IMG/VR virus record: IMGVR_UViG_3300035701_000003
Length of the DNA: 64,000 bases
Strand: one strand, 5' to 3'
DNA from: a virus
Below the pieces are notes generated by a model, which saw nothing but the letters and a program-made list of their open reading frames with translations, made no database searches and had not been told where the DNA came from. This document shows, piece after piece, positions 2,195-53,074 of this stretch; within the stretch, counting starts at the first letter, position 1, and each line of letters opens with the position of its first letter. The position numbers and the translations under genes were made by a program.

Positions 2195-2864
2195 TGCTTT
2201 TGTGTATTACGCTAAGAGATTGGCAGAAGAACGTTATCAGCCTTTAACTTTAGAGAAGGAGAGAGAATTACTGCATCAATATTCTGCAGGGCACGAAGAA
2301 GCTTTTAATAAGATAGTAAACGCTTATTTAAGATTCGTTATTTTTCTTTTAAGAGAATTCAAAATACCAGATGATGTTGATATTATGGATATAATACAAG
2401 AAGGTAATTTAGGTCTTATGCACGGTTTAACCAAATTTAATCCAGAATTATACGATTGTAGGGTTTCTACTTATTGCGCCCACTGGATACGTTTTTTTCT
2501 GAATAAATCTTTATTTAGTTATTCAAAAGCACGTAACTTTTTTACTCCAATTCTTGAAGAGGAATACTTACAAGGATACGTAATAGAGAAAGATTCCTAT
2601 AAAGATAAAGCGAATACCGATATTGTGGAATATGCTCTTTCCAAGTTGAATAAAAGAGAACGCTTAGTTGTTAGTTTGTATTTCGGGCTTCGTCCCCCTT
2701 ATATGTCTAAAACCCTTCTAGAAATAGCCTCTATGTTACATATTAACTTCGAACGAGTAAGACAACTTAAGGACTTAGCTTTAGAAAAAATGAAACCCTA
2801 TGTAGATAACCCTCCTATTATAAATCAAATAAGAAAGGAATGTTACAATTACTATGAAGAATAA
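2181..2864 (+). CDS. Sigma70-family RNA polymerase sigma factor (RpoD/RpoH-like regions 2 and 4)
   Basis: DIIQEGNLGLMHGLTKFNP..RVSTYCAHWIR (region 2) and LNKRERLVVSLYFGL..TLLEIASMLHINFERVRQL (region 4 HTH). The ATG at 2181 is preferred over the track start. Confidence 0.92.
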   Translation: MKYSSAFVYYAKRLAEERYQPLTLEKERELLHQYSAGHEEAFNKIVNAYLRFVIFLLREFKIPDDVDIMDIIQEGNLGLMHGLTKFNPELYDCRVSTYCAHWIRFFLNKSLFSYSKARNFFTPILEEEYLQGYVIEKDSYKDKANTDIVEYALSKLNKRERLVVSLYFGLRPPYMSKTLLEIASMLHINFERVRQLKDLALEKMKPYVDNPPIINQIRKECYNYYEE

Positions 2865-5283
2865 AACTATTGGGTATCTCAGCGATACCGCCGTTCGAAT
2901 AGCAACCGACCGTTATTTTACAGAAGAAGAAAAACGATTATTACCCGATATAGCGTTCGTGCATGCTTGTGATAGAATAGCTAAGGCTGTTTCCCTTGCT
3001 GAAAAGGAAGAATTGCAAAATCAATGGCGACAAGAATTTTATAAAGTAATAGTTAATAAAAAACTTGTACCAGCTGGTAGATTTTGGGCAAATGCTGGGC
3101 AAACTAACCAACAATTTCCAAACTGTTTTGTGTTTCCGATTAAAGATACTAAAGTAAATCATAAGGATGGCATATTCGATACACTCGCTACAGCCGTAGT
3201 TACAGCAAGTGGTGGCGGGGGCACCGGTTTCGATTTTTCTAGACTGCGTAGTAGAGGTATAAAAACTACTAAGAGTAGGGGGGTGGCTTCCGGACCTATT
3301 TCTTTTATTAAATCATATGACGCTGTAATGGAGAACATACAGCAGGGGGGCAGCAGACGCGCTGCTAATATGGGGGTTTTGAGGGTTGATCACCCTGACA
3401 TACTTGAATTTATATTTTTGAAGGATCGTAGTCAGAAGTATAGACGTTTTAATGTATCAGTTGCTATGACCGATAAATTTATGAAACAGTTAGGAGAAAG
3501 TCCTGATGATCCATGGGTAGTAATAGATCCTCATACAAAACAGCAATATTATATTTTTATGCCTCTCGACGCCGAACTTATTGATAATAGCCGCCTCGAA
3601 GAAGCTTATCCAGTTCATGATTATTTAAAGACTAATTATTTAAGGAGAGAATTACACGATTCTATAAAATCACCTATAGAAGGCGTTTATATAACTCCGC
3701 GAGATATCTGGTATGCTATTATATTAAATGCGTGGGAATGCGGCGATCCAGGTTTATTTTTTATTGATACTGCCAACAGAGCAAATCCTTTAATAGATCA
3801 TTATCAAGATTATAATTCTGAATATTACATACATGCTACAAATCCTTGTGGTGAAATTCCAATGGAAGATAATTCTATTTGTATGTTATCTGCTATTAAT
3901 CTTGCAACCTTTGTAATAGATAAGGGAGAAGAATCTATTATCGACTTTAAAGAACTTAAAAGAGTTACTTCTATAGGAGTTAGATTTCTTGATGATGCTT
4001 TAGATGTATCTGATTATCCTACGGATGATAATAAAAAGAAAGCGCTGTATACTCGAAGAATAGGATTAGGTTTAATGGGCTGGGCCGATTTGCTTATAAA
4101 AATGAAAATAATATATGGCAGCCTAGAAAGTATAGAATTAGCTAGAACTATTATGAAAACTATTAATACTACCGCTCTAGAAACAAGTATCTCTTTAGGA
4201 GCTGAGAAGGGAAACTTTCCACTTTTTACTGTTAGTAAGTATAACGTAGATCGTACGCAACTTACTAAAGATAATACTTTCCCTTTAGTAAAAACTTTAA
4301 GAAATTCTTACCGAACTACAATCGCCCCAACTGGAACTTCCTCTTTACTAGTTGGGGTTAACGAGAGTTTAGAACCTGTGTGGCAATTTGTGCATCTACG
4401 CAAGGATGAGACGGGTGAACATACAATCGAGCATTATTTATATACGGAATATGTTGATAACGCCATAGGGGTTATAGGAAGAATGGAAAAACCCCTACCT
4501 CCTTATTTTATAACTACTATGGAAATACCTTATAATCAGCATATAAAAATGCAAGCCGCCTTTCAGGATTATATTGATAATGCTATAAGTAAAACTATAA
4601 ATCTTCCCAAAGAAGCTACTAGAGAAGATGTGGAAGGTGCTTATAAGTTAGCTTATTCTATGGGATGCAAAGGTATTACTTGTTATAGAGATGGTAGTAA
4701 AGAGATACAAGTATTGAACGTAATTACTTCTTCCTTAGCAGAACCAACTTTACTACATTCCGTTACCCGAGAAGAGGGAATACTTTCTGGGTTGACTTGG
4801 AAAGTTAAAACGGGGGAAGGTACTTGTTATATAACGATTAACAAGAATGGTTCTCAACACCCCGTAGAAGTATTTATAAGAGTGGGTAAAGCTGGGTCTA
4901 ATATAAATGCTTATTCTGAAGCGTTGGGGCGTATAGTATCTCTTGCTTTACAGCACAAAGTAGACCCTAATATAATTACTAAACAATTAATTGGTATTTC
5001 TGGGGATAAAGTAATATTTCATAGTATAGGAAGCCATCATAAAGTGTTAAGCGTTCCAGACGCTGTTGGTAAAGTATTAGAAGATTTTCAATCTAAGGTA
5101 AACCTATTGAGTTATACTTTTAATGAAGGAGAAGCTCTTAAAGAAGAAGATAGAACACCAGAAGAAGATTCCGCTATCGATCTCAAGGGTACAGATATTG
5201 TGTTATGTAACGAGTGCCTTCAGCCGATAAAAGAAGTGAGGGGTTGTCGAACTTGCGGTTGTGGTAGTACTTGCGACGAATAA
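2854..5283 (+). CDS. nrdJ: Class II (adenosylcobalamin-dependent) ribonucleotide reductase with C-terminal TSCPD and Zn-ribbon domains
   Basis: NCFV, GGGTGFDFS, QQGGSRRAANM, active-site TNPCGE, RRIGLGLMG, TIAPTG, AISKTINLP, TCYRDGS. C-terminal VKTGEG..YITIN..EVFI and CNEC..CRTCG. Confidence 0.93.
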   Translation: MKNKTIGYLSDTAVRIATDRYFTEEEKRLLPDIAFVHACDRIAKAVSLAEKEELQNQWRQEFYKVIVNKKLVPAGRFWANAGQTNQQFPNCFVFPIKDTKVNHKDGIFDTLATAVVTASGGGGTGFDFSRLRSRGIKTTKSRGVASGPISFIKSYDAVMENIQQGGSRRAANMGVLRVDHPDILEFIFLKDRSQKYRRFNVSVAMTDKFMKQLGESPDDPWVVIDPHTKQQYYIFMPLDAELIDNSRLEEAYPVHDYLKTNYLRRELHDSIKSPIEGVYITPRDIWYAIILNAWECGDPGLFFIDTANRANPLIDHYQDYNSEYYIHATNPCGEIPMEDNSICMLSAINLATFVIDKGEESIIDFKELKRVTSIGVRFLDDALDVSDYPTDDNKKKALYTRRIGLGLMGWADLLIKMKIIYGSLESIELARTIMKTINTTALETSISLGAEKGNFPLFTVSKYNVDRTQLTKDNTFPLVKTLRNSYRTTIAPTGTSSLLVGVNESLEPVWQFVHLRKDETGEHTIEHYLYTEYVDNAIGVIGRMEKPLPPYFITTMEIPYNQHIKMQAAFQDYIDNAISKTINLPKEATREDVEGAYKLAYSMGCKGITCYRDGSKEIQVLNVITSSLAEPTLLHSVTREEGILSGLTWKVKTGEGTCYITINKNGSQHPVEVFIRVGKAGSNINAYSEALGRIVSLALQHKVDPNIITKQLIGISGDKVIFHSIGSHHKVLSVPDAVGKVLEDFQSKVNLLSYTFNEGEALKEEDRTPEEDSAIDLKGTDIVLCNECLQPIKEVRGCRTCGCGSTCDE

Positions 5284-5315: not shown

Positions 5316-6011
5316 ATGGTGCAATCAGTTATTTCTAACTTGCGTATCCCTATTGTAGTTCCTAAACGTAATAAGGGGAGCTATGAAGTTTTAAGCGATT
5401 GTAATATAAAAGCTACTTTGAATAGTGGTTTTAAAGACCCCGTAGACTTTATTCAGTATATAGTACCTTATATAAAGAACTCTTGTTTTGTGGATACCCC
5501 TTTGAAATTAGGTACTACTATTTACACAAGTGAAAATTTAGAGACCTTACAATTTTCTATGAATTTTTTATATCACTTAGACAGGTCTACTTCTTCCTTT
5601 AAGATATCCTTTTATGAAATGTTATGTTTTTATTCTGTAGAAATCTCCAAAGACCAAACTATATTAGAAATGGGTATAAAACTTCCCATTAGAGTAAAAG
5701 ATATAATCTCTTTACCAGGTTACTTGTATTTTTCTGTGTTGCAACCTAGTTACCATATTTATTTCGAAGATATTTTAGATTTTGTACAAAAACATGCTAG
5801 TATAAGATTTTATCCTCCTATTATTGCGGAAGACAAAGAAAGTTTAAAAGATTTAATTGATTTTGGAAAAAAGATTCCGGATTACTTAAATGCCTTTTCT
5901 AACGCTAAAAACTTTGATAGATTAGGAAAATCCTTAAAACTTCGCATAGACTACTCCGACGTGTATGATACGTATAATGCATCTTATGAAACTGTAGTAA
6001 AGGAAAATTGA
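5316..6011 (+). CDS. Degenerate FolE2 (GTP cyclohydrolase IB, T-fold) paralogue lacking catalytic motifs
   Basis: Aligns colinearly by eye with FolE2 at 12929: ISNLRIPIVV/VTNVYFPIKV, FLYHLDRS/FDYYLDRK, IYFEDILDFVQKHASIRFYP/IWLEDLIGVIEKQASAPVYP, LRIDYSD/LRVYNEE. SLCPC, AHNQRS and ESIH are absent. Confidence 0.65.
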   Translation: MVQSVISNLRIPIVVPKRNKGSYEVLSDCNIKATLNSGFKDPVDFIQYIVPYIKNSCFVDTPLKLGTTIYTSENLETLQFSMNFLYHLDRSTSSFKISFYEMLCFYSVEISKDQTILEMGIKLPIRVKDIISLPGYLYFSVLQPSYHIYFEDILDFVQKHASIRFYPPIIAEDKESLKDLIDFGKKIPDYLNAFSNAKNFDRLGKSLKLRIDYSDVYDTYNASYETVVKEN

Positions 6012-6013
6012 AT

Positions 6014-6772
6014 ATGGAAGACACCTCTAAAATAATAATGGTTAATGAAAGTTACGTGTGTATTCAAGCTGAAGGTAAATATATGGGGGTTCCTCATATT
6101 CTTATAAGGATGAGCGGCTGTGCCTTGAGATGTATGTTTAAAGATTCTATCTGCGATACTTTTTATAGTTCTTTTGTTCCTGAAAAGGGTAAGTATACTT
6201 TACAGAACATTAAAAAAATTTATGAAGATAATCCTGATATACATTATACTATGATTACGGGGGGAGGGCCTACCTTTAACCCTCCGCTTTTATGTACTTT
6301 AGTTGATTTAGCTAAAAGCTATTCTCATTTTGTTACTATAGAGACTGAAGGTTCTACTTTTGTTGCTACTAAAGCTGACTTTATTTCTCTTTCTCCTAAA
6401 TTAAGTAACTCTAGACCTCGAGTAGGTTCTTATAAAACTTTTGATAAGGACGTTATAATTAGTCCCGTTCAAGTACGGCGACACGAAACCTTACGTAAAA
6501 ATTATAGTGCTATGCTTAGAATGATTACTATGCATCCGGATTATCAACTTAAACCTGTAATAAGTAATATTACAAAGGATATGAAGGAGGTAAAAGAATT
6601 GCAAGAGAAATTAGATGTTCCTAATAGTAAAGTTTGGTTAATGCCCGAGGGAATAACTAATGATCAATTACAAATATTGAGACCAGATCTTATAAATTAT
6701 TGTGTTAAGCGTGGTTATAATTATTCAGACCGTTTACAGATAGTAGCCTTTGGGAATAGGAGAGGAGTGTAA
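6014..6772 (+). CDS. queE: 7-carboxy-7-deazaguanine synthase (radical SAM)
   Basis: IQAEGKYMG.P..LIRMSGCALRC.....ICDT (Cx3Cx6C variant), ITGGGP, TIETEG, SLSPKL, VWLMPEG, YSDRLQI..FG..RG. Confidence 0.92.
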   Translation: MEDTSKIIMVNESYVCIQAEGKYMGVPHILIRMSGCALRCMFKDSICDTFYSSFVPEKGKYTLQNIKKIYEDNPDIHYTMITGGGPTFNPPLLCTLVDLAKSYSHFVTIETEGSTFVATKADFISLSPKLSNSRPRVGSYKTFDKDVIISPVQVRRHETLRKNYSAMLRMITMHPDYQLKPVISNITKDMKEVKELQEKLDVPNSKVWLMPEGITNDQLQILRPDLINYCVKRGYNYSDRLQIVAFGNRRGV

Positions 6773-7597
6773 GTGAGTCAACGACTTCTCTTTGGAGATT
6801 TTTTAAAGATTAGTGATACACTTCCTAATGATTCTGTTCATTTATTTATAATAGATCCTCCTTATCTTATAGATTATAAGGATTGGGATAAACAGAACGA
6901 GACCTTTTTAATAGACTGGGTAAATATTTGTATTAATAAAATCTCTCCTAATGGCACTATGTGGATTTTCATGGCGAAGGATAATCTTTTTACCCACGAC
7001 ACCTGTAAACCGGGTTTAGTGAATCTTCTGCAACTTTATGGCACCGTTCATTTAGAAAATTGGGTTACTTGGAGCCGGCAAAAAGGAAGAGGTTCTTCTA
7101 AACATCTCAAATCTCAAAGGGAAGAACTTATACATTTTACAAAACATCCTACAGATTATACTTGGAATAATTTAAAAGTAATAAGGGAAGTAATAGTACC
7201 TTATGTGAAAGATGGTAGGGCTAGAGGTTGGTTTCTTAATGAAAAAGGTCAGAGAGTAAGATGGACGGGACTTGGTAACTCTTGGGTATTTTCTCAACCT
7301 CAATGGAATGGAAGATTAGATAAACAAAGACATACTGCCCAAAAACCTTTTTTACTATACGAAAGATTATTGTTACTTAGTTCCAATCCGGGCAACTCAG
7401 TAGTAGACCCTTTCGCTGGGTCTTTTACCTTAGCTCATGTGTGTAAATATCATCATAGAGATTACGTAGGGTTTGAAAATAACGGAAAAATATTTTATGA
7501 AAATAGTGCGTACTTTTATGACCATTATAAGGATGTTATAAAAGCTTACGAAGAAGAAAAGAGAAGTTTTATAAATAGCACGCCCCAGGAGGTTTAA
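6773..7597 (+). CDS. Beta-class N4/N6 amino-methyltransferase (DNA methylase)
   Basis: Motif IV IDPPY is N-terminal; H.AQKP..LYERLL..SSNPG..VVDPFAGS (motif I) is C-terminal. Confidence 0.9.
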   Translation: MSQRLLFGDFLKISDTLPNDSVHLFIIDPPYLIDYKDWDKQNETFLIDWVNICINKISPNGTMWIFMAKDNLFTHDTCKPGLVNLLQLYGTVHLENWVTWSRQKGRGSSKHLKSQREELIHFTKHPTDYTWNNLKVIREVIVPYVKDGRARGWFLNEKGQRVRWTGLGNSWVFSQPQWNGRLDKQRHTAQKPFLLYERLLLLSSNPGNSVVDPFAGSFTLAHVCKYHHRDYVGFENNGKIFYENSAYFYDHYKDVIKAYEEEKRSFINSTPQEV

Positions 7598-7912
7598 ATG
7601 ATTGATAATCCTATGAGAGATAAAGAAGGATTTTATAATGAAATCAAGGAAACCACAAATTCTTATTTAGATGATCGCGAGTTAAGCCACCCTCCAGATT
7701 TTTTATATAATTGGATATTGGGAAATGTGTTAGAGAACTACGCTGTATTTCCTAAACATATATCTGTTGATAATTCTCAAGCTTATCGGTTTTTTGATAT
7801 AATATTACAATGGGCCCGCGTAGACCCCAGTACTAAGGAAATGGATATACCCGTAGAATCTATTTTACAGCATTTAGCTTCTGAAGGGTGGATAATAATT
7901 CCCCCTAAATGA
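7598..7912 (+). CDS. Hypothetical protein
   Basis: 104-aa ORF abutting its neighbours, with an RBS (ggagg). Confidence 0.75.
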   Translation: MIDNPMRDKEGFYNEIKETTNSYLDDRELSHPPDFLYNWILGNVLENYAVFPKHISVDNSQAYRFFDIILQWARVDPSTKEMDIPVESILQHLASEGWIIIPPK

Positions 7913-7913
7913 T

Positions 7914-9359
7914 ATGAATACAATTGAAATACAATTTTCTCCTATTAAATGTAAAATTTTAACACCACTTTCTATAGATATGAGTAACTTATTGCATGCT
8001 GAGTTATCTTACCAAATGGAAGGATTCTTTTTTTCTCCTAAATATCAAAGTCATGTGTGGGATGGTTATACTAGACTATATAATAAAAAAAGTCAATCTT
8101 TTAAGACTGGTTTACTATACCGGGTAACTGACCTTTTGACTAAGGAAGGTTATGATGTACATGTTAAAGATTTACACGAAACTACTTCTTTTAACCAACG
8201 GAATTTTAGTTATGAATTAAGGCGATATCAATTAGAAGCTGTAAATGATTTATTAAAGTTTAGATTTGGCGTATTACAGTCCCCTCCAAGAAGTGGCAAA
8301 ACCATGATAATACTAGCTACTATAGATAGCGATAGACAATTACCAGCTATTATATTAAGCCGTAGTTTAGATTTAGCTTACCAAACTCGAGATAAGGCTT
8401 CTGAAGCTTTACAAGATCTTAAAATAGGTATAGTAGGCGACGGCAAGTGTGAAATAGGAGACGTTACTATTGTTACGGTACAGAGTGCTTATTCCGCATA
8501 TGGTCAAAAGTATAAATTAGAGAAAGGGGAGAAAAAAGAGAAACCTTTAGACGAGGATAAAGAAAGTGTAAAGGAATTGTTGTATAATACTAAGACAGTA
8601 TTTTATGACGAAGCTCATGAAAGTGATGGAAGAACTAGTAGAGTAATATTGGATAAGTGTTCTAATGTTACTATGAGGATTGGAGTATCAGCTACTCCTT
8701 TCGAAGGAGAAGAGCAAGACTTGAGAGTAGAAGAAGCTGTAGGACCTGTAATACATAAGATATCTTATTCAGAACTGATAAAAGAAGGTTACTTATTAGC
8801 TCCTCTTATTTACATGTATAAACTACCTAAAATAGTAGTTGAAGGTAACTATCAATCTATTTACAAACAAGCCGTTACTAATAATGAATTCTTAACTAGC
8901 CTCATTAAGAAGATAGTAGATAAATTAGTTTCTCAAAACTACTCTGTAGTAGTACAAACAGAATTTCGAGAGCATTCTAAGCGGCTGGCTCAAATTTTAG
9001 AATGTCCTTGTTTAATAGGTAATGAACCAGCTGAAAAAAGAAAAGATGTTTTAGACAAAATTCGAAATAGAGAGTACTTATGCGTAGTATCTACTTTAAT
9101 AGAACAGGGTATTGATTTACCTTCTCTTAATTTTACTATTAACCTTGCTGGTGGTAAAAAGAAAATACCTACTATTCAAAGGATGCGTTCTCTGACTCCT
9201 TATGAAGGTAAAAAAGTTTGTGGGGTAGTAGACTTTATTCATCAATGTAAATATCTCAAGAAACATAGTAACTTGAGAAAGACTTTTTATCAATCTGAAT
9301 CTGAGTTTACTTTACTTGAAAAAGATGTTAGTAAGAAATCCTTGGAGGAAATAACGTGA
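7914..9359 (+). CDS. SF2 DNA helicase (UvsW/ResIII-like)
   Basis: LRRYQ Q-motif, Walker A PPRSGKT, DEAH, SAT, LIEQGIDLP and IQRMR. Confidence 0.92.
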   Translation: MNTIEIQFSPIKCKILTPLSIDMSNLLHAELSYQMEGFFFSPKYQSHVWDGYTRLYNKKSQSFKTGLLYRVTDLLTKEGYDVHVKDLHETTSFNQRNFSYELRRYQLEAVNDLLKFRFGVLQSPPRSGKTMIILATIDSDRQLPAIILSRSLDLAYQTRDKASEALQDLKIGIVGDGKCEIGDVTIVTVQSAYSAYGQKYKLEKGEKKEKPLDEDKESVKELLYNTKTVFYDEAHESDGRTSRVILDKCSNVTMRIGVSATPFEGEEQDLRVEEAVGPVIHKISYSELIKEGYLLAPLIYMYKLPKIVVEGNYQSIYKQAVTNNEFLTSLIKKIVDKLVSQNYSVVVQTEFREHSKRLAQILECPCLIGNEPAEKRKDVLDKIRNREYLCVVSTLIEQGIDLPSLNFTINLAGGKKKIPTIQRMRSLTPYEGKKVCGVVDFIHQCKYLKKHSNLRKTFYQSESEFTLLEKDVSKKSLEEIT

Positions 9360-9679
9360 CAAGAACCGAAAGAAAAAGAAAAAGAAAAATCCAAGTAAAT
9401 CAACTTTCTAGTAATTATTTAGGAGAATTTGCTGATTATTTAGAAAAGAATGTTATGGGTAATGACGCTGATGGTACTACTATGTTTATAAGATGTTTAG
9501 CAGATATAATGGATAGGATTAAATTACATATTAAACAACACCCTACGGAAGCCGAAGTATACAGAGAAGCAGGGCATTATTTTATAGAATCAGCTATAGA
9601 TACTTTGAATGAATCTGTTCCTGATTTTCTTATAGATGCAGAGAACTTAAAAATAAAACTGGGCTACTATATTCAATAA
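9356..9679 (+). CDS. Hypothetical protein
   Basis: 107-aa ORF overlapping the helicase stop. Confidence 0.7.
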   Translation: MTRTERKRKRKIQVNQLSSNYLGEFADYLEKNVMGNDADGTTMFIRCLADIMDRIKLHIKQHPTEAEVYREAGHYFIESAIDTLNESVPDFLIDAENLKIKLGYYIQ

Positions 9680-9686
9680 AGATATT

Positions 9687-10094
9687 ATGCCTACTATTAG
9701 AGTTTCGCCTTTAGTTGATATACATAAGGACATACCCTTATGGAATAGTCGTGATTTACTTATCTATTATTCTAATAAGCTAAAGGAATTTTCTGGAGAG
9801 CACTTAGAAATACCTCCAGTTGCTTGGCGCGGTTTTATGGGTAGAATTAAAGGTTTTAAAGATAAACTACATTTATCCAGCCAAGATTATAAGAATTTTA
9901 TGGATGATGTATTCCGCAAATTATATATAGATAAACATTACGTACCGGCCTTCGGCGCTATTGTCAGCGAACGTGTTTATAATTTATTGAAAAAGGATTC
10001 TTTAAAACAGTATAGTAATGAGGATTTTATTGCTTTAAGAGATAAGTTATTTCAAGATAAATTATTATTCAAACAAGTTGGAGGTACCTTATAA
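9687..10094 (+). CDS. Hypothetical protein, possible replisome organiser/loader partner
   Basis: 135-aa ORF; the function is inferred only from its position upstream of the DnaC-like and DnaB genes. Confidence 0.35.
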   Translation: MPTIRVSPLVDIHKDIPLWNSRDLLIYYSNKLKEFSGEHLEIPPVAWRGFMGRIKGFKDKLHLSSQDYKNFMDDVFRKLYIDKHYVPAFGAIVSERVYNLLKKDSLKQYSNEDFIALRDKLFQDKLLFKQVGGTL

Positions 10095-10321
10095 TGTATT
10101 TTTTAATTTATAGACTAGGCACTGTTTTACATAAAAGAATTTTCCCCGATTATACTTCTTGGAATACTATTCTCGATTCTTTCAAAGGTATTGTAGTTGA
10201 GTTATTTAAGAACGATAGATTAAGTGAAAGAGACTTTAACAATTTATTTAGCGTGACGAGAAGAGATTTTATGGTTTGTGTTAAAAATGGCACTACTTTT
10301 AATGTAATGGATGGCTATTGA
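10094..10321 (+). CDS. Hypothetical protein
   Basis: 75-aa ORF translationally coupled to both neighbours. Confidence 0.65.
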   Translation: MYFLIYRLGTVLHKRIFPDYTSWNTILDSFKGIVVELFKNDRLSERDFNNLFSVTRRDFMVCVKNGTTFNVMDGY

Positions 10322-11079
10322 TGGGTAATTTGTTTTATATAACTTCAGATCAAGTAGCTGAGATAAAACAAAATACTATAGGAGTGACCTGCGAAGGCAC
10401 TTGTCAAGGTACTGGATTTCTATTAAAAGGTTTTAATCTCGAAGATTGTACCTGTTCTAAAGATTTTCTAAGAGTAGTATCTTACGTGGGGTCTGGTATT
10501 CCTAAAAAGTATTGGGATTTCGACCTAAGACATTTAATTCCCGAATTTCTTACTAATAATAAAATATCACTTTCCATTATAGATAAGTTTAGAACAGATA
10601 TACAAAAAGCTACAGACCAAGGTATAGGATTATACATACAAGGCGCATCCGGCGTAGCAAAAACCTCTTTAGCTTTTTATATTATGAAAACAGCGCTTGA
10701 TAAAGACATACCTTGTTACGCAATTAGAATGTCTCAATTAACTAAGTTACTATTTGAAAGTTTAACTAACGAGGATAAGAAACAACAATTGGATTTTATA
10801 AAGAATACTACGAAACTATTGTTAATAGACGAGATTGAAAAAGATTATAATGTTGGGGATACGGGTAAGTTTGCTGGAACCCAGGTGAACGAATTTTTTA
10901 GTTATATATATGATAGTCAAAAGTCTCTTATAATTACTTCTAACCTTCCCAAGGCCGAACTACGGCACGTACACGCTTTTAATATTATAGATAGATTGCA
11001 GGAATTGATTGATGTAATTTTAGTAGGAGAAAGCTTTAGAAATTATGATACTAATTTGCAAAAACTTATGAATAGTTGA
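10318..11079 (+). CDS. DnaC/IstB-like AAA+ helicase loader
   Basis: N-terminal C..C.GTG..C.C, Walker A GASGVAKT, Walker B LLLIDE, IITSN and IIDRL. Confidence 0.88.
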   Translation: MMGNLFYITSDQVAEIKQNTIGVTCEGTCQGTGFLLKGFNLEDCTCSKDFLRVVSYVGSGIPKKYWDFDLRHLIPEFLTNNKISLSIIDKFRTDIQKATDQGIGLYIQGASGVAKTSLAFYIMKTALDKDIPCYAIRMSQLTKLLFESLTNEDKKQQLDFIKNTTKLLLIDEIEKDYNVGDTGKFAGTQVNEFFSYIYDSQKSLIITSNLPKAELRHVHAFNIIDRLQELIDVILVGESFRNYDTNLQKLMNS

Positions 11080-12401
11080 TTATGCCTTCTTTAAGATTTA
11101 ATGATTTTGATACTGAACGTTACTTTTTAGCTTGTTGCTTAAAAGGGCCCGAGCATTGGAAGAATATACCAGAAGCTTGGTTACACGAAGATATTAGTAA
11201 AAGAACTTATAAGTCTTATAAGAGTTTCTTATCTCCTCCTTACGCTACTTATCCTACAGTGGAGTTAATTATAGAAAAAAGTAGTGATGTTGATGTAAAA
11301 CTTTTTACGCAAGAAATTAGTCAAATAAAAATAGATGAGAAACTAATTAATTCTAAAGTATATGACCTCTATGAAATGTACGCCGCGCGTAAAGTATTTG
11401 ATATAGTAGAAAGAGTACCTAATGAAATGGAGAAAGGAAAAATTGAAGAGGTAATAAGAAGTAAAGTTTTTGAATTTTCTCAATTAGTTAATCCTTTCGA
11501 AGCCGGTTCTAGAGAAAGAGGTTTTATATATGAAAGCGCTGCAGCTCGATGGGAACGTTACCGTATGATAGAAAAGAATCCCCAATTACTGGGAGGTATT
11601 CCTTATCATATTAGTGACTTGGATAAGTATACATCAGGAGGACTTAGAAAATCCCATGTAGTATCCTTCTTTGCAGAGACTGGCGGCTTTAAGACTAAGG
11701 TTATGCTGAATTTAGCCTATAATTTTTCCTTTTTAGACGAAAAAGAAGTTATGGTTATAACTTTAGAAGTACCTAAAGACGACTACGAATCACTAATAGA
11801 TAGTAGGCATTCTTTACTTTCTTTTAACGAAATACGTTCTGGTGCTTTAGGAGGTAATAAAGAACACTATAGACAACAACTTATAAATATTAAACAAACT
11901 AATCCACGTCTTTATATAGTTGATATTCCTGGGGAAGCTACTACCGCTGATATTATTGCAGAATTAGAATTATATTATACTATAAGAGGTAACTACCCCA
12001 GCGTTATTATTTTAGATTATCTTAATGAAATAGAACCTGTTTCCTCTTGGAATAATACTAGTGAGAAGTTTAAGAACGCCGGGGTTGAAATAAGAAGAAT
12101 AGCTAGAACCTATAAGGTAGGTTTTGTTACTAGTATGATGGAAAATAGAGAAGGTAAAAAAATAAAAGATAAAACTAAGATAGGATTAGAACATGTTTCT
12201 GAAAGTCATTATTTTGCTAACGTGTGCCATTTATTTATTCATTTATATCAAGATGCGGAAGGAGTAGATGCTGCTACTAATCAGTTACACTGGCATATAA
12301 AGAAAAACAGATACGGACCTAAACATGTTAGTTTTACTACTTTTGTTAATCCAGATTTAAATTATGTAGGCGACAGACATATAATTGTTCCTCCAAACTA
12401 A
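11076..12401 (+). CDS. dnaB: Replicative DnaB-like helicase
   Basis: LDKYTSGGL, Walker A AETGGFKT, ITLEV, Walker B IILDYL and the C-terminal Arg finger KKNRYG. Confidence 0.9.
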   Translation: MIMPSLRFNDFDTERYFLACCLKGPEHWKNIPEAWLHEDISKRTYKSYKSFLSPPYATYPTVELIIEKSSDVDVKLFTQEISQIKIDEKLINSKVYDLYEMYAARKVFDIVERVPNEMEKGKIEEVIRSKVFEFSQLVNPFEAGSRERGFIYESAAARWERYRMIEKNPQLLGGIPYHISDLDKYTSGGLRKSHVVSFFAETGGFKTKVMLNLAYNFSFLDEKEVMVITLEVPKDDYESLIDSRHSLLSFNEIRSGALGGNKEHYRQQLINIKQTNPRLYIVDIPGEATTADIIAELELYYTIRGNYPSVIILDYLNEIEPVSSWNNTSEKFKNAGVEIRRIARTYKVGFVTSMMENREGKKIKDKTKIGLEHVSESHYFANVCHLFIHLYQDAEGVDAATNQLHWHIKKNRYGPKHVSFTTFVNPDLNYVGDRHIIVPPN

Positions 12402-12932
12402 ATGATAGATGATTTTACCGAAATATTAGATCATTACGATATTCCTTATAAGGAAAAATTATTATCTCCCGAGATTGATGTTTTATGTCCTTTTCATGAT
12501 GATGTTCATTTTGGTAACGCTAAATACAATAAGAATCGCGATACCTTCCATTGTTTTAGTTGTAATGCTAGCGGTAATAAATATCAATTTGTAAGTAAAC
12601 TAGAAGGTTGTACTTTAAAGGAAGCAGAAGCTTTACTTGAAAGTAATTTTAAGAAAGAAAGAGAAACTTATAATATTTCTACCTTAAAAGATAACTTAAA
12701 AAGGAAAACTAATAAATGGTTAACTAGGCCCTTTGCTTCAGCTGCTTTACTTTCGTGCAACGATAAGATGTTGCAAGTTATGTGTGAAAAAAGACCTCCG
12801 TATTCTTTTCTAAAGAAGTGGTTTCCCATTATGTGTTATTTAAGAGGGCCTTCTTCCGAAGAATTACTTGAAAAAGAAATAGTAAATATTTACGGAGAAT
12901 TTTATAAACAGTTAAATCAGGAGACGACATGA
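12402..12932 (+). CDS. Stand-alone CHC2 zinc-finger protein (primase Zn-binding domain) with a helical C-terminus
   Basis: CPFHDD...FHCFSC.ASGN..QFV..LEG..LKEA; no TOPRIM domain. Confidence 0.85.
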   Translation: MIDDFTEILDHYDIPYKEKLLSPEIDVLCPFHDDVHFGNAKYNKNRDTFHCFSCNASGNKYQFVSKLEGCTLKEAEALLESNFKKERETYNISTLKDNLKRKTNKWLTRPFASAALLSCNDKMLQVMCEKRPPYSFLKKWFPIMCYLRGPSSEELLEKEIVNIYGEFYKQLNQETT

Positions 12933-13822
12933 GTGAATTACCGGATATGCAAAATCAGCAAGATGGGCGAAATATTTCTATTGATAGAGTAGGGGTTACT
13001 AATGTATATTTTCCTATTAAAGTAAGATTAAAAGGGGAAGACGAAGATAAGCAACCTTCCTACCTTCCTGTTTCCGCACATACTAAACTCTTTGTAGGGT
13101 TGCCTAAAGAATATAAAGGGGCTAACTTATCTCGTTTTTACGAGAGCTTGATGGAATTTAATCAACATGTTATATCTGCAAGAACTATGCCTAAACTATT
13201 AGACTTATTAAGGACTAAGTTAAAAAGTAATGATGCCTATGCTAGATTTGAATTTGATTACTACTTGGATAGAAAAGCCCCCGTGTCTAAGAAAGAAGCC
13301 CCTCAGCGATATAGATGCGCGTTTACTGGTATTAAAAGAAATGGTGATTATAGTTTTATAATAGAAGTAAACGTAGTAGCTGCAAGTCTTTGTCCTTGTA
13401 GTAGGGAAATGAGTTTATTAACTAATTTAACGCACGGGAAAGAAATAACCTATAGTAAAGACTATCAGTGTCCTGATGTGGCTAAAAAGGTTGGCATGGG
13501 GGCTCATAATCAACGTTCTCACATTAGAGTCGAGTTAATTTCCGAAGAGGGTGATATTATATGGTTAGAAGATCTTATTGGGGTTATAGAAAAACAAGCT
13601 TCTGCTCCCGTGTATCCTATATTAAAAAGAGCCGATGAAAAATTTGTTACTGAACAAGCTTACAATAATGCTAAATTTTCTGAAGACATTACGAGAGATG
13701 TACAGATTGCCATCGAATCTTTACCTCATGTAAAAGCATGGGCTTTGAGGGTTTACAACGAGGAGTCAATTCATCCCTATGATGTGGCTTGTTATCAATG
13801 TTCTCCCAGTTGGAAATATTAA
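12929..13822 (+). CDS. folE2: GTP cyclohydrolase I type B (FolE2/MptA family)
   Basis: PDMQN, IDRVGV, KGANLSRF, SLCPCS, GAHNQRS, YPILKR.DEK.VTE.AY.N.KF.ED and EESIH. Confidence 0.95.
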   Translation: MSELPDMQNQQDGRNISIDRVGVTNVYFPIKVRLKGEDEDKQPSYLPVSAHTKLFVGLPKEYKGANLSRFYESLMEFNQHVISARTMPKLLDLLRTKLKSNDAYARFEFDYYLDRKAPVSKKEAPQRYRCAFTGIKRNGDYSFIIEVNVVAASLCPCSREMSLLTNLTHGKEITYSKDYQCPDVAKKVGMGAHNQRSHIRVELISEEGDIIWLEDLIGVIEKQASAPVYPILKRADEKFVTEQAYNNAKFSEDITRDVQIAIESLPHVKAWALRVYNEESIHPYDVACYQCSPSWKY

Positions 13823-14759: not shown

Positions 14760-15605
14760 ATGGAAGATATTAAATTAAAATTTGCAGCTATTTCCTTTTC
14801 CGGAGGAATGGATTCCTCTACTCTATTGCTACGTTTATTATACGAAGGTTATGTTGTAATAGCTTTAAGTTTTGATTATGGTCAAAAACATTCTTTGGAA
14901 CTTACTAAAGCTAAGGAACTTATTGAGTACCTTTACTATGGTGGTTATCATGTAGTTCACCGTGTAATTACATTAACTGGTCTTAGTGCTTTATTAGATT
15001 CTACTTTAGTACGTGGAGGAGCTGATATTCCCGAGGGTTACTATAAAGAAGAGAATATGAGAGTAACCGTAGTGCCTAATAGAAATAAAATCTTTTCTTC
15101 TATCGTACAAGCTGTTGCCTTAAGCACCGCTAACAGATATAAAACCGTTAGTGTAGTAGCTTTAGGTATACATCAAGGAGACCATGATATTTATCCCGAT
15201 TGCCGACAAGAGTTTAGGGATGCTGATTTACAAGCCTTTAGATTAGGTAACTGGGATAGCGATAAAGTAACTATGTATACACCTTATTTAGATTTAACTA
15301 AATTTGAAATCTTGCAAAATGGGGTATTACTTTGTGAGAAACTGCAGTTGAATTTTGACGAAGTTTATAAAAGAACCAATACTTCGTATAAACCTATTTT
15401 TATAGGTAATGATATTTACCCCGGTCATCCTGAGTTTGGGGGTAATTGGTATCCCGATTATAAGTCTGCTTCAAGTATAGAGAGGGTTGAAGCTTTTATA
15501 AAATTAGGACGCCCCGACCCTTTGCAATATGCCGATGAGAGCGGGCTAGTATCATGGCGTGCTGTGACAAATTACTTTACGAATCTTATAAATAAGGTTA
15601 AATAA
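14760..15605 (+). CDS. queC: 7-cyano-7-deazaguanine synthase
   Basis: SFSGGMDS, FDYGQKH..EL, TVVPNRN, GIH.GDH..YPDCR. The C-terminal YKSASSIERVEAF..LG..DP replaces the Zn-cysteine cluster. Confidence 0.93.
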   Translation: MEDIKLKFAAISFSGGMDSSTLLLRLLYEGYVVIALSFDYGQKHSLELTKAKELIEYLYYGGYHVVHRVITLTGLSALLDSTLVRGGADIPEGYYKEENMRVTVVPNRNKIFSSIVQAVALSTANRYKTVSVVALGIHQGDHDIYPDCRQEFRDADLQAFRLGNWDSDKVTMYTPYLDLTKFEILQNGVLLCEKLQLNFDEVYKRTNTSYKPIFIGNDIYPGHPEFGGNWYPDYKSASSIERVEAFIKLGRPDPLQYADESGLVSWRAVTNYFTNLINKVK

Positions 15606-15724: not shown

Positions 15725-16120
15725 ATGTATGCTTTAATAATAATTTTTATAATAATAGTAATAATCGAATCTTCTCATACTCGAAAGACCATGCAAGATT
15801 CTATTAATCGTTTACAAGATAACGATACTACTTCTAAAAAGGTTCCTGCCGGTTTTCAAATTACTTCCCGAGAAACCAGTTCCTTTGGTTATAAACAACT
15901 CCTAACTAGTCTTCACGTGCCTCCGGATGTTTATGTTTTATCGCCATTGGTTCCCACCTTAAGTTCTTTAGGTATTATGTTTATTATTTGTGGAAACTGC
16001 AAGAAATCCTTTTATAGTAAAGATGGTAAGGAATGCCCTCATTGTATGCAAGATAATCCAAAGAATATTTATAAATACACTAATTCACTAACCACCAATC
16101 AACAAAGGAGTAATAAATAA
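15725..16120 (+). CDS. Membrane-anchored protein with a C-terminal CxxC..CxxC zinc ribbon
   Basis: Hydrophobic N-terminus YALIIIFIIIVII; CGNC...CPHC. Confidence 0.7.
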   Translation: MYALIIIFIIIVIIESSHTRKTMQDSINRLQDNDTTSKKVPAGFQITSRETSSFGYKQLLTSLHVPPDVYVLSPLVPTLSSLGIMFIICGNCKKSFYSKDGKECPHCMQDNPKNIYKYTNSLTTNQQRSNK

Positions 16121-16851
16121 TGAATGCTGGAACCAAACAACAACTCCGTTTAACTATAAGAACTTTGGCAGAGACCGCCTGCCGGAAGATGACTATATCT
16201 GAACAGGAGGAATTTTTTAAGTATCAAGAGCAACGAATAGCTTCTGGGGAAGCTATTCCCAAACGCTATAAAGTACCCGTTAGGAAATATTATAAGGGTG
16301 TCAAGAAAGGGAAGGCTAAGGAAGTTTATGAAATTGATGGAAAAACTTTCGAGCAACTTTGGAATAAACTTTTGAATTACGCTTTGATATCTAGTGTAAA
16401 TAGTCACTCTAATGGTTTTACTGATATTAATGTTCAGGAAGATGTATTAGATATAAGATATCATTGTTTTAGAATTTTGAGATTTTTCGGGCCAAAGCCA
16501 ATGGGAGTAACTTTCGATAAATTCTTTCCATTACTAGTTCACAGTTTATTAATTAATAGTGCTAATAGAAGATATAAGACGCTAAGAACGCAGATTAACT
16601 TTAAAGCAGTCAGTTTATTCGAATCGATACCAGGTAACGGCTTTGATGATGATGAATCTTATCTAATAGATACTTTAGCTGATGAATCCTTACCAAAGCA
16701 ACGCGATTTAGAATTACTGTTAGATACCCCGGAACCGTTAAAAGAAGGAGTAGAAAACCTTTTGGGAGGTACTTCTCTTACAGAGGTATGTAAAAAACTA
16801 AAAGTAAAAACTTCGCGTTTTCGCGAACAAATGGAACCCGTTTTAAGATAA
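16120..16851 (+). CDS. Divergent sigma-factor-like protein
   Basis: FEQLW..LL, EDV.D...F..F..LV (region-2-like), SLFESIP....ESYLIDTLADE (region-3-like) and a C-terminal HTH G.SLTEVCKKLKV. Confidence 0.5.
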   Translation: MNAGTKQQLRLTIRTLAETACRKMTISEQEEFFKYQEQRIASGEAIPKRYKVPVRKYYKGVKKGKAKEVYEIDGKTFEQLWNKLLNYALISSVNSHSNGFTDINVQEDVLDIRYHCFRILRFFGPKPMGVTFDKFFPLLVHSLLINSANRRYKTLRTQINFKAVSLFESIPGNGFDDDESYLIDTLADESLPKQRDLELLLDTPEPLKEGVENLLGGTSLTEVCKKLKVKTSRFREQMEPVLR

Positions 16852-16895: not shown

Positions 16896-17429
16896 ATGCT
16901 TACTAAACAAGAAAAAGAAGAAAGATTACGAAAGTCAGAGGGTAAACCTCATATACAGGCGCAGAACGCCGAAGTAGGTAAAACTTATTTAACAGTCGGT
17001 ATGTTGTACAAAGTTAAAGTTTTGCAGATTGGTGAAATGGGGGTCTATGTGGATAGTGAAACCTCCGATACAAAAATTACTATATCGTCTAGCACTGAAT
17101 TAATTGAATATGACGACTCTTTATACATTTCCCCAAAAGGTTTAAACACAAATACAAATAATAATAAAGAAAGGAAGAATAAAAATATGGGCGAAAAATC
17201 AGAAGTAACTCTAGCAAGTATTATCGATCCTGGGTTGATGGCGGGTAAAACTCCAGAACAAATAGCAGATGAGATTATTGAAAAAATCCCAAGTAGGTTA
17301 GCCGATAGGAAGGGCTTGATACAAAGGATACGTGGTCCGAGGAAACATTATTTGATTAAGAAGTTGCAAAAAGAAGGTAAAGAAGTTCCAGTCCATCTTC
17401 TTTCCTGTAAAAAAAGCGAGAAAGAATAA
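16896..17429 (+). CDS. Hypothetical protein
   Basis: 177-aa ORF with an RBS, followed by a terminator. Confidence 0.75.
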   Translation: MLTKQEKEERLRKSEGKPHIQAQNAEVGKTYLTVGMLYKVKVLQIGEMGVYVDSETSDTKITISSSTELIEYDDSLYISPKGLNTNTNNNKERKNKNMGEKSEVTLASIIDPGLMAGKTPEQIADEIIEKIPSRLADRKGLIQRIRGPRKHYLIKKLQKEGKEVPVHLLSCKKSEKE

Positions 17430-17530: not shown

Positions 17531-18301
17531 ATGACGAATAAGATTGCGTTATCGGTGGAACTACCCATAGACCTTTTACGACTATCAGATTTACTCGATC
17601 AAGATTTTGTAATAGCGAGTTATTGTTTAGAGTATCCTTATTATCATGCTTTTTATAAAGAGCGTAGGCAAGAAAAAGAAGTGTTTACTTATCTTGACAA
17701 TGGTGCTTTTGAATTAGGTAAAAGTATTGATAGTAAAGAATATGGGAAGTTAATAGATGATATTCGCCCGCATGTTGTAGTATTACCAGATGTTGTGAAT
17801 AACGCTAGGGATACTGTACATGAATCTCGTAAATTCTTGAAATCTTTTACAAAAGACGTTCCTTGTTATATGGGGGTATTACAAGGTACCAGTCTTTCAG
17901 ATTATCTATATTGTTTATACTTCTACTTAAAGATGGCCGAACATTATCCTATAAGAGTGATAGGAATACCTTATCATTTATTCTATCGACCGACTCTTTT
18001 ACGTAAATATGGAATAAATGACATATGTAAAGAACATGAAATACAAATACATATACTAGGCTTACCTAATCCTTTTGAAATAGTACCTCTTCATAATTTT
18101 TCACAAGTTACATCTGTCGATACTTCTCTTCCTATTTCAGCAGCTTGGCAAGGGATGGATCTAGCCGCCTATAGCTGGGTCGAGGGATTTAGAGTAGCAG
18201 TAGACGCTGTGGTAGATGGACCTTCTCAAGATTTATCCGAACATAACATAGGATTTCTTAAACATCTCTGCCATAATATCTTACAGGAGCATTTGATATG
18301 A
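17531..18301 (+). CDS. TGT-fold (tRNA-guanine transglycosylase/DpdA-like) protein, candidate DNA 7-deazaguanine insertase
   Basis: LDNGAFE, VLPDV, GVLQG, GIP, IHILG and SVDTS follow the TGT TIM-barrel motif order. It co-occurs with folE2/queD/queE/queC and overlaps the polA start. Confidence 0.7.
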   Translation: MTNKIALSVELPIDLLRLSDLLDQDFVIASYCLEYPYYHAFYKERRQEKEVFTYLDNGAFELGKSIDSKEYGKLIDDIRPHVVVLPDVVNNARDTVHESRKFLKSFTKDVPCYMGVLQGTSLSDYLYCLYFYLKMAEHYPIRVIGIPYHLFYRPTLLRKYGINDICKEHEIQIHILGLPNPFEIVPLHNFSQVTSVDTSLPISAAWQGMDLAAYSWVEGFRVAVDAVVDGPSQDLSEHNIGFLKHLCHNILQEHLI

Positions 18302-21300: not shown

Positions 21301-22002
21301 ATAAAGTTACCGAGAGATGCAATAAACAAGGAAACTTTTTTGGAATTAACTAAGGATGTAACTAAAGCCGAAAGACAAGATACTAAAACTATAGTGTTTG
21401 GAGTTATGTATGGAAGAGGTGCCCCCAGCGTAGCCGCCCAATTAGGAATAAGTACTTCTAAAGCCCGAAAGATTATAGATGTTTTCTTTAGTAGATACCC
21501 ACAAGCTTCTTTTTGGATTAAAACAACTATAGCTACTACCCGAAGAGACGGATATACTGTAAATTTATTTGGAAGAAGAAGAAGATTACCTGATATATTA
21601 TCCCCAATTCAGGGGGTGAGAGCTGCCGCTGAAAGACAAGCTATAAATGCACCCATCCAATCAGGGGCTTCGGATTTAACTTTCTTAGCTGGAGGCAGGA
21701 TATTCCGACACATATGGCAAAATAGAATGAAAACTCGGTTAGTATTAACCGTTTACGATTCTTTAGTATTTAATATTCCCGATAATGAATTAAAAACAAT
21801 AGTAGATTTAGTTAGTGTAGAGATGATTAAAAAACCTTTAGATTCGATAATGGTTCCCATTGGATGTGAAATAAAGGTAGGAACTCACTGGGGTACTCTT
21901 ATGGAGATAAATCCTAAGGAAGACTGGAATATCGTGTATAATAAACTTATAGAACATAAAAAATTAAAAGATGTTAAATTTACACAAAATAAAAGAGGTT
22001 AA
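18298..22002 (+). CDS. polA: Family A DNA polymerase with N-terminal family-4 uracil-DNA glycosylase, 3'-5' exonuclease domain and an intein
   Basis: UDG: C..CPL, GEGPG..E...G.PFVG.AG, CRPPDNRTP, HP. Exo: DTET, HNGGYD, YA.SDAD. Pol: TGRISS.DPNL.NIPR, motif A DLAQAEFR, motif B K...FGVMYG, AERQAINAPIQSGASD, motif C TVYDS. Confidence 0.95.
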   Translation: MIFEMKYYPSCHPENCKECPLGKQEGIKVVRSILPSHAKVLFIGEGPGEVENEKGIPFVGKAGELLSQIMIEVGINRDDVAIANTVTCRPPDNRTPTTKEIKICSQFLHLEIASLKPSLIVPLGAVALKVIYPSLGTITKVRGKFVDHPELGCKILPAFHPFYILRNPTERHFLVDDLKKVSDFMHGKISIPEKQPTYYHTITTRKQLDWAVEQLHKNTIWACDTETTSVNQLEAEVFIITFSWKSHSAILMDSRLFKNDLEYFWAKVKEVMENNSCKIFHNGGYDIQCFINHGIQVQKYHADTILMYYMLTQTILPGLDKLTWDFSDLGGYDLLLERYKKENTINSYKDIPVEIIHPYACSDADVTLRSYLAMLPQIEKQHLSFVLFDIMIPTQKILLRAEYNGVSIDKNYLDKTIEKYTKKMQDQLTVVKNVPQVRQFVEDKRTQEKAILKSKWEKSKTLTKKYPGFEDYLQARLLKSPDSLTTEFNMNSPKQLKELLIDKMGLKIIKTTATGQPSVDGEVLEEYAKHNSFCNALQEYRTLSHLKSTFLVGILNRLTSQNKVHTDYFLCTTDTGRISSRDPNLANIPRTGTADDIKDIFCSDPGDWLMEADLAQAEFRCIEGSQKVLMEDFTTKPIKEIKKGDRVLAIDESPLKGSPRRKFKVAEVLKTHYQGKKECVRISSEENRIICTKDHKFLKNSSRNENYGINRWESLETNDLCYNLPISYIKNKKEYLEGMLFGLYLTDGHLKNDTDYPVLSICQSDKEIIDWVFTFLKDYGFSCKRFFDKHAYYISLSNKKEVTRFLKIFSKERSLDSQRGIVAGMILGDGWIGGDGWIRGNDKTFKQTGIGIGLSIVHPEVMEILYNCLNSLKNCYSFTYRVYNFPYKSDKENKPFYHFYFSAICMFLFPQLIPGRKQKRFYEVLLRFTSLQNINKVKVRIEKLPKVYPTYDLTTTTGTFICENFLVHNCWMEYSRDQQALEDLNNGLDIHKLIAAVAYHDIKLPRDAINKETFLELTKDVTKAERQDTKTIVFGVMYGRGAPSVAAQLGISTSKARKIIDVFFSRYPQASFWIKTTIATTRRDGYTVNLFGRRRRLPDILSPIQGVRAAAERQAINAPIQSGASDLTFLAGGRIFRHIWQNRMKTRLVLTVYDSLVFNIPDNELKTIVDLVSVEMIKKPLDSIMVPIGCEIKVGTHWGTLMEINPKEDWNIVYNKLIEHKKLKDVKFTQNKRG
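20158..21204 (+). mobile_element. Intein (349 aa) with LAGLIDADG homing endonuclease, inserted directly after PolA motif A
   Basis: Starts CIEGSQKV, block B ICTKDHKF, LAGLIDADG-like GLYLTDG and GMILGDG, block F TYDLTT..GTF, ends FLVHN with +1 Cys. Confidence 0.93.
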
Positions 22003-52501: not shown

Positions 52502-53074
52502 ATGTATACCATAACCAAACAATTCGATTTTTGTTACGGGCATAGAGTATGGTCTCAAACCCTGAATACCGAATTTAGTTTGGACTCTTGTCTTGCTTGC
52601 AGGCACCTTCATGGGCATCAGGCGAGAGTAATTGTATATTTACAGGCGGATACTCTCGTATCAGGAATGGTGACTGATTTCAAGCATCTTAATTGGTTTA
52701 AGAAATGGCTCGATGATGTATTGGATCATAAGTTTATTATGGATATAAATGATCCTTTATTAGTTTATGAAATACCTCATCTTTTTGACGGTCATAGAAA
52801 TTTAAAGCGGGATTATTTAGTAAAACACGCAATAGATGGGGGTTATTATACTCTTTATTTAGAAAAACTAGATGTTCTTAAATATGATTCTGCGTTGACA
52901 GAAAAATATGAAGGAATGGTTATAGTAAATTTTGTTCCTACTTCTGAAAATTTAAGTAGTTGGCTTTTTGATATAGTAAATGAAAGAATGAAAAGATTGT
53001 TTGTAAAAGTATCAAAAGTGGAATTTTTTGAAACCCCAAAATCAAGAAGTATATATACAGACGGTGGAGTCTAA
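52502..53074 (+). CDS. queD: 6-carboxy-5,6,7,8-tetrahydropterin synthase (long QueD2-like form)
   Basis: F.F.YGHR, C.HLHGH, VTDF..L...K..LD..LDH, PTSENL and ETP.S. Confidence 0.93.
   Translation: MYTITKQFDFCYGHRVWSQTLNTEFSLDSCLACRHLHGHQARVIVYLQADTLVSGMVTDFKHLNWFKKWLDDVLDHKFIMDINDPLLVYEIPHLFDGHRNLKRDYLVKHAIDGGYYTLYLEKLDVLKYDSALTEKYEGMVIVNFVPTSENLSSWLFDIVNERMKRLFVKVSKVEFFETPKSRSIYTDGGV

Follow-up and report, generated by a model that had tools for sequence, protein, structure and literature searches.

We find that X, our working name for the 231-aa product of an intact plus-strand reading frame at positions 5316-6011 of a 64,000-nucleotide stretch of viral DNA (the window, by which we mean the whole stretch), is a member of a phage-restricted family lacking annotation that descends from GTP cyclohydrolase IB (FolE2) and has kept both of its T-fold modules. 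We read X as a derivative of FolE2 that has lost metal-dependent ring opening in favor of another, still selected function, and as a core gene of the replication/nucleotide module in one uncultured myophage clade in which the que genes are accessory. The window's copy of X is called P0001, and Table 1 lists it with the other main genes discussed here.

Table 1. Main features of the window, in order of position, with the evidence for each assignment
Feature	Position	Strand	Evidence and remarks
Class II-type ribonucleotide reductase (RNR)	2854..5283	+	Ribonuc_red_lgC and TSCPD
X (P0001), FolE2-derived bimodular T-fold protein without metal/catalytic motifs	5316..6011	+	Family profile, AF2 model, structure searches, dN/dS
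QueE (7-carboxy-7-deazaguanine synthase)	6008..6772	+	phrog_2076 E 1.2e-39; 38% identical to QueE of Flavobacterium phage immuto
Intact FolE2 (GTP cyclohydrolase IB)	12929..13822	+	PF02649 E 3e-73; CPCS, AHNQRS and NEESIH motifs
QueC, divergent	14760..15605	+	PF06508 E 8.5e-37; TIGR00364 125 bits against a cut-off of 150
DpdA3-like DNA transglycosylase	17531..18301	+	phmmer against immuto DpdA3 E 5.9e-12; NCBIfam DpdA E 6.8e-4; homologues in G001-G004
QueD (6-carboxytetrahydropterin synthase)	52502..53074	+	tblastn E 3.8e-65 against G002 QueD; PF01242 E 9.8e-27; about 46 kb from X

Kinship of X with FolE2

Taken alone, P0001 has no match in Pfam (even at E 10), PHROGs or NCBIfam, and all named copies of the family carry the label 'hypothetical protein', just as the sequence-only reading of this DNA had expected of annotation pipelines. 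That reading also had X aligning along its full length with the FolE2 of the window in six or more blocks. Pairwise BLASTP gives a single weak block instead (residues 148-212 against 211-263, E 0.002), but the full-length kinship itself holds and is visible at the level of profiles and structures. An exhaustive HMMER search of 1.84 billion representatives returns 51 family representatives at 50% clustering, 37 of them below E 1e-10, and the 39-sequence family alignment used throughout (A2) is built from these matches. Against the PDB, the A2 profile matches FolE2 over nearly its full length (profile positions 5-201), with 2r5r at E 1.2e-10 and 3d2o at E 1.3e-6. Alignment of A2 to four phage FolE2s with hhalign gives 95% probability and E 3.6e-8 in local mode, and in global mode the two are co-linear, X 1-230 against FolE2 18-297. 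Within the collected loci, the A2 HMM and the FolE2 HMM each detect the other's family. Individually, 11 of the 39 members match PF02649 weakly (best E 1.8e-5), and this is the only family that recurs; P0001 itself does not reach the PF02649 gathering threshold, nor any other Pfam threshold.

The predicted structure tells the same story as the profiles. An AF2 model of X built with A2 (pLDDT 94.6, pTM 0.89) consists of two beta-beta-alpha-alpha-beta-beta modules, which is the bimodular T-fold. The ten best PDB matches in Foldseek are all FolE2 (TM 0.77), and in a VIA structure search of the model against representatives 2r5r scores Z 19.7 with 225 residues aligned, followed by urate oxidases (Z about 13) and single-module T-folds (Z 8-10.5). 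The T-fold and FolE2 relationship proposed before any search had been run is what both kinds of search return. Two further searches are less informative: the BFVD fold search returns partial single-module T-fold matches only (best E 0.016), and the ESM Atlas model has a pLDDT of 0.32, with HNOBA and PAS feature matches that fall below trust.

Compared with FolE2 (PF02649; PDB 2r5r, 3d2o, 5k95, 8g6c), X shares the bimodular architecture, co-linear over the full length, as well as an F-E-D-x-L at the start of helix 3 with a Y-P/G after it, and a C-terminal Trp that is common to X and the phage FolE2s. Urate oxidase, the second-best structural class, is a cofactor-free bimodular T-fold and sets a precedent for metal-free purine catalysis; unlike X, however, it has about 300 aa and different inserts, it shows no detectable sequence kinship with X, and nothing suggests oxidase chemistry in X.

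The family is absent from 50,697 GenBank phage records (DNA and protein searches), from BFVD and from 185,579 species genomes (pattern scan), and further IMG/VR scans with A4, A5, P0033 and P0017 plus P0042 found nothing. None of the papers we searched mentions a phage paralogue of FolE2. For the clade's UvsW-like helicase, the closest cultured relative is at most 28% identical, and therefore no cultured member of the clade is available for comparison. Two candidates for membership were rejected: P0055 (837 aa, 5 stretches) proved to be a false positive made of low-complexity repeats, and a 365-aa reading frame in the long relative G005, which gives a phmmer match, is not confirmed by the family HMM.

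Lost FolE2 motifs and conserved residues of the X family

FolE2 is a homotetramer with its active sites at three-subunit interfaces; in Burkholderia numbering, the metal ligands are Cys154, His166 and Glu208, and the catalytic residues are Glu250 and His253 (PMC11573665). In terms of motifs, Cys154, His166, Glu208 and the pair Glu250/His253 correspond to CPCS, HNQRS, LKRxDEK and ESIH, respectively (residue numbers of Ng FolE2 are counted on the HMMER alignment). In our alignments, the beta5-beta6 loop that carries CPCS and AHNQRS, and that spans about 45 aa in the phage FolE2s, is missing from every member of the family, and X is about 65 aa shorter than FolE2 overall. Where FolE2 has its third metal ligand, the Glu of LKRxDEK, X has K174, which is not conserved but lies next to a conserved D173. 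In a low-confidence part of the alignment, the position of the catalytic Glu250 is held by a near-invariant D215 and the S-I-H of ESIH is a 3-aa deletion, which reduces this motif to one Asp. The KGxN(L/M)SRF, APVS and LKRxDEK motifs as such are missing as well. The absence of SLCPC, AHNQRS and ESIH had been reported from the letters of the DNA before, and the alignments bear it out, with the first two lying in the deleted loop. Because the metal ligands and the catalytic residues of FolE2 are lost, X would lack cyclohydrolase chemistry and could not open the imidazole ring of GTP; judged by its sequence, it cannot be a GTP cyclohydrolase.

The sequence-only reading had called X a catalytically stripped pseudo-enzyme. 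The catalytic motifs are indeed gone, but the term is too weak for a family that has a near-invariant set of polar residues of its own: K17, R18, K20, E24, D89, R90, C104, E151, D152, D155, D215 and Y217, with G21, S/T92, K159, D173, D/E189, Y220 and the C-terminal Trp conserved in addition. Four hairpin turns and helix 3 hold the conserved polar residues; K17, R18, K20 and G21 are in the beta1-beta2 turn, D89, R90 and S/T92 in the beta3-beta4 turn, E151, D152, D155 and K159 in helix 3, and D215, Y217 and Y220 in the beta7-beta8 turn. No His is conserved in the 39-sequence alignment.

Two of these residues bear on what the family could bind. D/E189, in helix 5, is acidic in 34 of the 39 sequences and aligns, with some uncertainty of register, with D217 of FolE2 and not with E216 in two independent alignments. 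We take E216 to be the conserved acidic (Glu/Gln) T-fold anchor for the 2-amino-4-oxo-pyrimidine ring of the ligand, and because D/E189 is one position off this Glu, retention of purine or pterin binding in X is plausible as a putative property and no stronger. The other residue is C104, the sole conserved Cys of the family, in mid-strand of module 1. All four phage FolE2s have a Cys at the aligned position and the two bacterial FolE2 structures do not; C104 may therefore be just an inherited structural residue. The comparison matters for QueF (nitrile reductase) and QueF-L (archaeosine amidinotransferase), T-folds whose chemistry on 7-deazaguanines depends on a nucleophilic Cys, part of a catalytic Cys/Asp pair in the T-fold pocket. 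On QueF-L, the N-terminal module of X can be superposed with Z 10.1. The structural match to QueF/QueF-L, however, covers one module only (Z 8-10), X has neither a PF14489 match nor the QueF motif, and one relative (G002) has a normal QueF besides X. C104, mid-strand and shared with the phage FolE2s, may well be structural.

Purifying selection acts on X. Three independent pairs give Nei-Gojobori dN/dS values of 0.093 (L034/L035), 0.100 (L025/L027) and 0.164 (L001/L019), where the L numbers denote loci from IMG/VR and metagenomes. That X might be a decaying pseudogene or an unexpressed reading frame has one observation to its credit, a single frameshift in each of the metagenomic copies of L029 and L032. 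As all motifs are intact in these two copies, they most likely reflect sequencing errors; moreover, the reading frame is intact in about 50 clusters (at 50% identity) that diverge down to 22% identity, and together with the dN/dS range and the confident model this leaves decay a negligible prospect.

A second alternative is that X serves as a protein- or nucleic-acid-binding barrel in the replication machinery, with no small molecule involved. X does lie in a replication module, and two kinds of extension could be read in this way: P0017 is an X with a 93-aa N-terminal extension that resembles a winged helix in its sequence, and a conserved helical C-terminal extension of ~96 aa occurs in L020:7381-8349 and L023:3341-4309 (P0014 type). 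Against it, the extension of P0017 is a single case (its single-sequence AF2 model has a pLDDT of 36), neither extension has a Pfam match, and the conserved residues of the family are charged pairs in loops, as in a ligand site. The family is also near-neutral (median pI 6.4, median net charge -1), which argues against a generic nucleic-acid binder. We regard this alternative as improbable. No fusion of X to a known domain occurs in the exhaustive HMMER search.

Gene order and preQ0 genes in the window and its relatives

We now turn to the genes around X. In the window, X starts 33 nt past the end of the RNR gene, and its stop (TGA, 6009-6011) overlaps a candidate start of queE (TTG at 6008; an alternative in-frame ATG lies at 6014), in agreement with the overlap seen in the sequence-only reading. 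Across the sigma factor, RNR, X, QueE and methylase genes, a scan of the window finds no terminator and no more promoter-like sites than expected by chance. The window holds a complete preQ0 set (FolE2, QueD, QueE and QueC) plus the DpdA3-like transglycosylase, whose gene sits just upstream of polA. With QueD and the DpdA3-like gene both present (Table 1), X was rejected as a replacement for QueD, which is normal here and also in G002, and as DpdA. By the markers of QueD/PTPS, too, X shows no PF01242 match, and with no conserved His in the family there is no CxxxHGH motif.

Several features of these genes stand beside the question of X. The window's QueC is 281 aa long with a C-terminal extension, and those of G002-G004 score far more strongly on PF06508 (E 1e-66 to 1e-72); the window's version might be a variant with a different product. 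The PolA gene (18298-22002) begins before the DpdA3-like gene has ended, so that the two overlap. Its product combines a UDG-superfamily domain with a 3'-5' exonuclease and a family A polymerase, and is interrupted by an intein with LAGLIDADG homing-endonuclease domains. Two reading frames at 16120-16851 (243 aa) and 16896-17429 (177 aa) are conserved downstream of FolE2/QueC in L002, L005, L025, L027 and L028, and have no match in Pfam, PHROGs or NCBIfam.

The relatives that we compare are the L-numbered loci and five records (G001-G005). They share one gene order: sigma factor, RNR, X, QueE, unk104, UvsW-like helicase, unk135, AAA loader, DnaB, primase zinc finger, FolE2. RNR is immediately upstream of X in every locus that reaches that far. 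QueE follows X in 14 distinct contexts and comes in two types that are 22% identical. In four contexts (L028, L034/L035, L036) the order is RNR, X, unk104 without QueE, and in L031 an unrelated gene follows X; L028 is also without FolE2 and QueC between the primase finger and unk243. The coupling of X to queE proposed from the window is therefore positional, recurring in 14 contexts, but it is not obligatory.

Among the five records, G001-G004 all have FolE2, QueC, QueD, QueE and the DpdA3-like gene. G005 (locus L034), a 62.6-kb IMG/VR fragment that is syntenic with the window over ~1.7-54 kb, has X, and none of these five genes was found in it; with an estimated completeness of 36%, the fragment leaves room for que genes beyond it. 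In this phage a class III NrdD and an NrdG replace the class II RNR, still upstream of X. The X proteins of que-less phages keep the signature residues and are under purifying selection (dN/dS 0.09). They are more diverged, with mean identities of 0.22-0.27 against 0.30-0.38, while the core genes of these phages are not more diverged, and the only A2 member without R18 is from the que-less L028. A tree of concatenated core genes places the two long que-less phages in one group (SH-aLRT 87), and they therefore count as one independent event and not two.

How should these patterns be read? One explanation is that X is a dedicated 7-deazaguanine accessory, which hands the FolE2 product or the oxygen-sensitive CPH4 to QueE or converts a deazaguanine intermediate to a further base, with a drifting or re-used copy, or host preQ0 genes, in the que-less phages. 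The abutting or overlapping ends of X and queE speak for it, and so does the choice of enzyme: all que-positive X-bearing records carry FolE2, which is nearly absent among the 50,697 GenBank phage records (3 doubtful records). The succession of X and QueE in 14 contexts, with either QueE type in the same slot, and the greater divergence of X in que-less phages, L028 with its missing R18 among them, fit a real link to the que pathway. Yet X persists under purifying selection in G005, where the five que/dpdA genes are missing from the region syntenic to the window, and L028 and L036 go directly from X to unk104. QueF is present in G002 and not in G003 or G004, with X in all three, and because X occurs with and without QueF it is not tied to one end product. 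Conversely, the cultured deazaguanine phages immuto and phiST have no X; the QueE closest to that of the window is from Flavobacterium phage vB_FspM_immuto (38% identity), which uses a type IA FolE. We consider a dedicated accessory possible, if on balance somewhat unlikely. As the five que/dpdA genes come and go as a set and X stays, X appears to be separate from the deazaguanine module.

A precedent for such a recruitment exists in DpdL, a QueD paralogue of Cellulophaga phage phiST and a proposed CDG decarboxylase (PMC10516641). Like X, it is a paralogue of a T-fold preQ0-pathway enzyme in a deazaguanine phage, with changed catalytic residues and a putative activity. Unlike X, DpdL is a unimodular relative of QueD/PTPS that keeps the metal-binding His (LxxxHRHxF) and occurs only where QueC is absent, whereas X, with FolE2 as its parent family, has neither a metal site nor a His motif, and co-occurs with QueC (as in the window) and also occurs without any que genes.

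The same records speak to the suggestion, made in the sequence-only reading, that X is a non-catalytic subunit co-assembling with FolE2 into a hetero-oligomer. X matches the FolE2 core in fold and comes close to it in length, FolE2 builds its active sites from three subunits (PMC11573665), and the que-positive records all pair X with FolE2. But X is retained in G005 and L028, where no phage FolE2 occurs at the syntenic position or in the rest of the fragment, which argues against an obligate form of this assembly. Beyond that, a dead subunit at three-subunit active sites would poison an enzyme the phage needs, the two genes lie about 7 kb apart, and a passive scaffold would not need conserved polar residues of its own. 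We find such a hetero-oligomer highly improbable.

X could also be an accessory of ribonucleotide reduction or dNTP-pool control, a nucleotide-binding T-fold partner of the RNR that binds its effector or substrate, for example, or senses the pool. The ancestor of X is a GTP-binding enzyme, the window has no terminator between RNR and X, and X directly follows the RNR in all loci that reach upstream, even where a class III NrdD and NrdG have been swapped in. However, the whole module is syntenic and the adjacency may be inherited gene order; X-RNR adjacency therefore proves no more than X-QueE adjacency. We found no evidence of fusion or co-variation, and we know of no RNR accessory with a T-fold. 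This role seems to us quite doubtful.

The collected loci show a number of other features. In L034/L037 (IMG/VR UViG_3300014204_012498), the locus at 6846-11591 encodes an NrdD of 707 aa and an NrdG-like radical SAM activase, and a YspA/cpYpsA-type SLOG (PF10686) gene lies three reading frames after X. The protein of ~100 aa that we call unk104 (7598-7912 in the window) is conserved clade-wide (HMM E down to 1.7e-35) and directly follows QueE, or X itself where QueE is missing. The two QueE types, with their low mutual identity, occupy the same slot after X (we compared the window's 6008-6772, L001:10694-11443, L017, L020, L021, L030, L032 and L033); the type in the window is shared with the L002/L005/L025 clade, and the core genes of the window group with L001 and L017, which suggests that queE was replaced in place by recombination. 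Some UvsW-like helicases have 847-892 aa as against about 485 (L017:2431-4974, L029:13324-15900, L033:1446-4124) and some RNRs 1068-1519 aa as against about 800 (L021:187-4746, L020:3922-7128); these overlong genes have probably been invaded by inteins. DnaB appears as two reading frames (about 310 and 140 aa) in L020:12072-13453 and L028:5284-6587, which could reflect a frameshift, an intron or a split gene.

A proposed role for X and its significance

Our preferred reading, which we hold tentatively, is that X is a homo-oligomeric, metal-independent, putative binder of or enzyme for a guanine- or pterin-type nucleotide. We favor it because the conserved charged residues lie in hairpin turns at the location of the FolE2 active site, the pI is near neutral and there is no fusion partner. 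In this mechanism X probably assembles, as FolE2 does, into a tunnel-shaped homo-oligomer. The former active-site end of its sheets would bind a nucleotide such as GTP, dGTP or dihydroneopterin triphosphate without metal. The phosphates would be held by K17-R18-x-K20 and D89-R90, two basic hairpins next to each other, while base binding and acid/base functions would fall to D/E189 together with the D215-x-Y217 hairpin. In the nucleotide metabolism of the phage, X could then be an enzyme that needs no metal, or it could carry or sense the bound ligand; the neofunctionalised T-fold enzyme of the sequence-only reading is thus a candidate too. Where the que genes are present, X may also have a part in their pathway, such as handling the product of FolE2 on behalf of QueD/QueE, though this would be neither its sole nor an obligatory role.

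A bolder version would have X be a metal-independent T-fold enzyme on a FolE2 scaffold that acts on a GTP-derived nucleotide, a pterin or a deazapurine and gives an undescribed metabolite or DNA base, or else the first T-fold accessory of ribonucleotide reduction or dNTP-pool control in phages. We think this version unlikely.

In pterin and deazapurine chemistry, T-fold enzymes have been turned to new uses time and again (FolE, FolE2, QueD, QueF, QueF-L, DpdL), and X is, as far as we could find, the first FolE2-derived branch to discard the metal center and yet stay strongly conserved. It is a new branch, lacking annotation, of a known fold and superfamily, with its catalytic center lost and with a tie to DNA deazaguanine that is not exclusive. 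For annotators, the lesson is that adjacency to queE is not enough for a pathway assignment; it is the presence and absence of genes across relatives that puts X in the core replication module. Members of the family occur only in an uncultured clade of large phages, and this clade rewrites its guanines as well. If X binds or transforms a guanine or pterin nucleotide, it would add an activity to the DNA-modification and nucleotide-metabolism toolkit of phages, and would give a name to about 50 clusters that are now 'hypothetical'.
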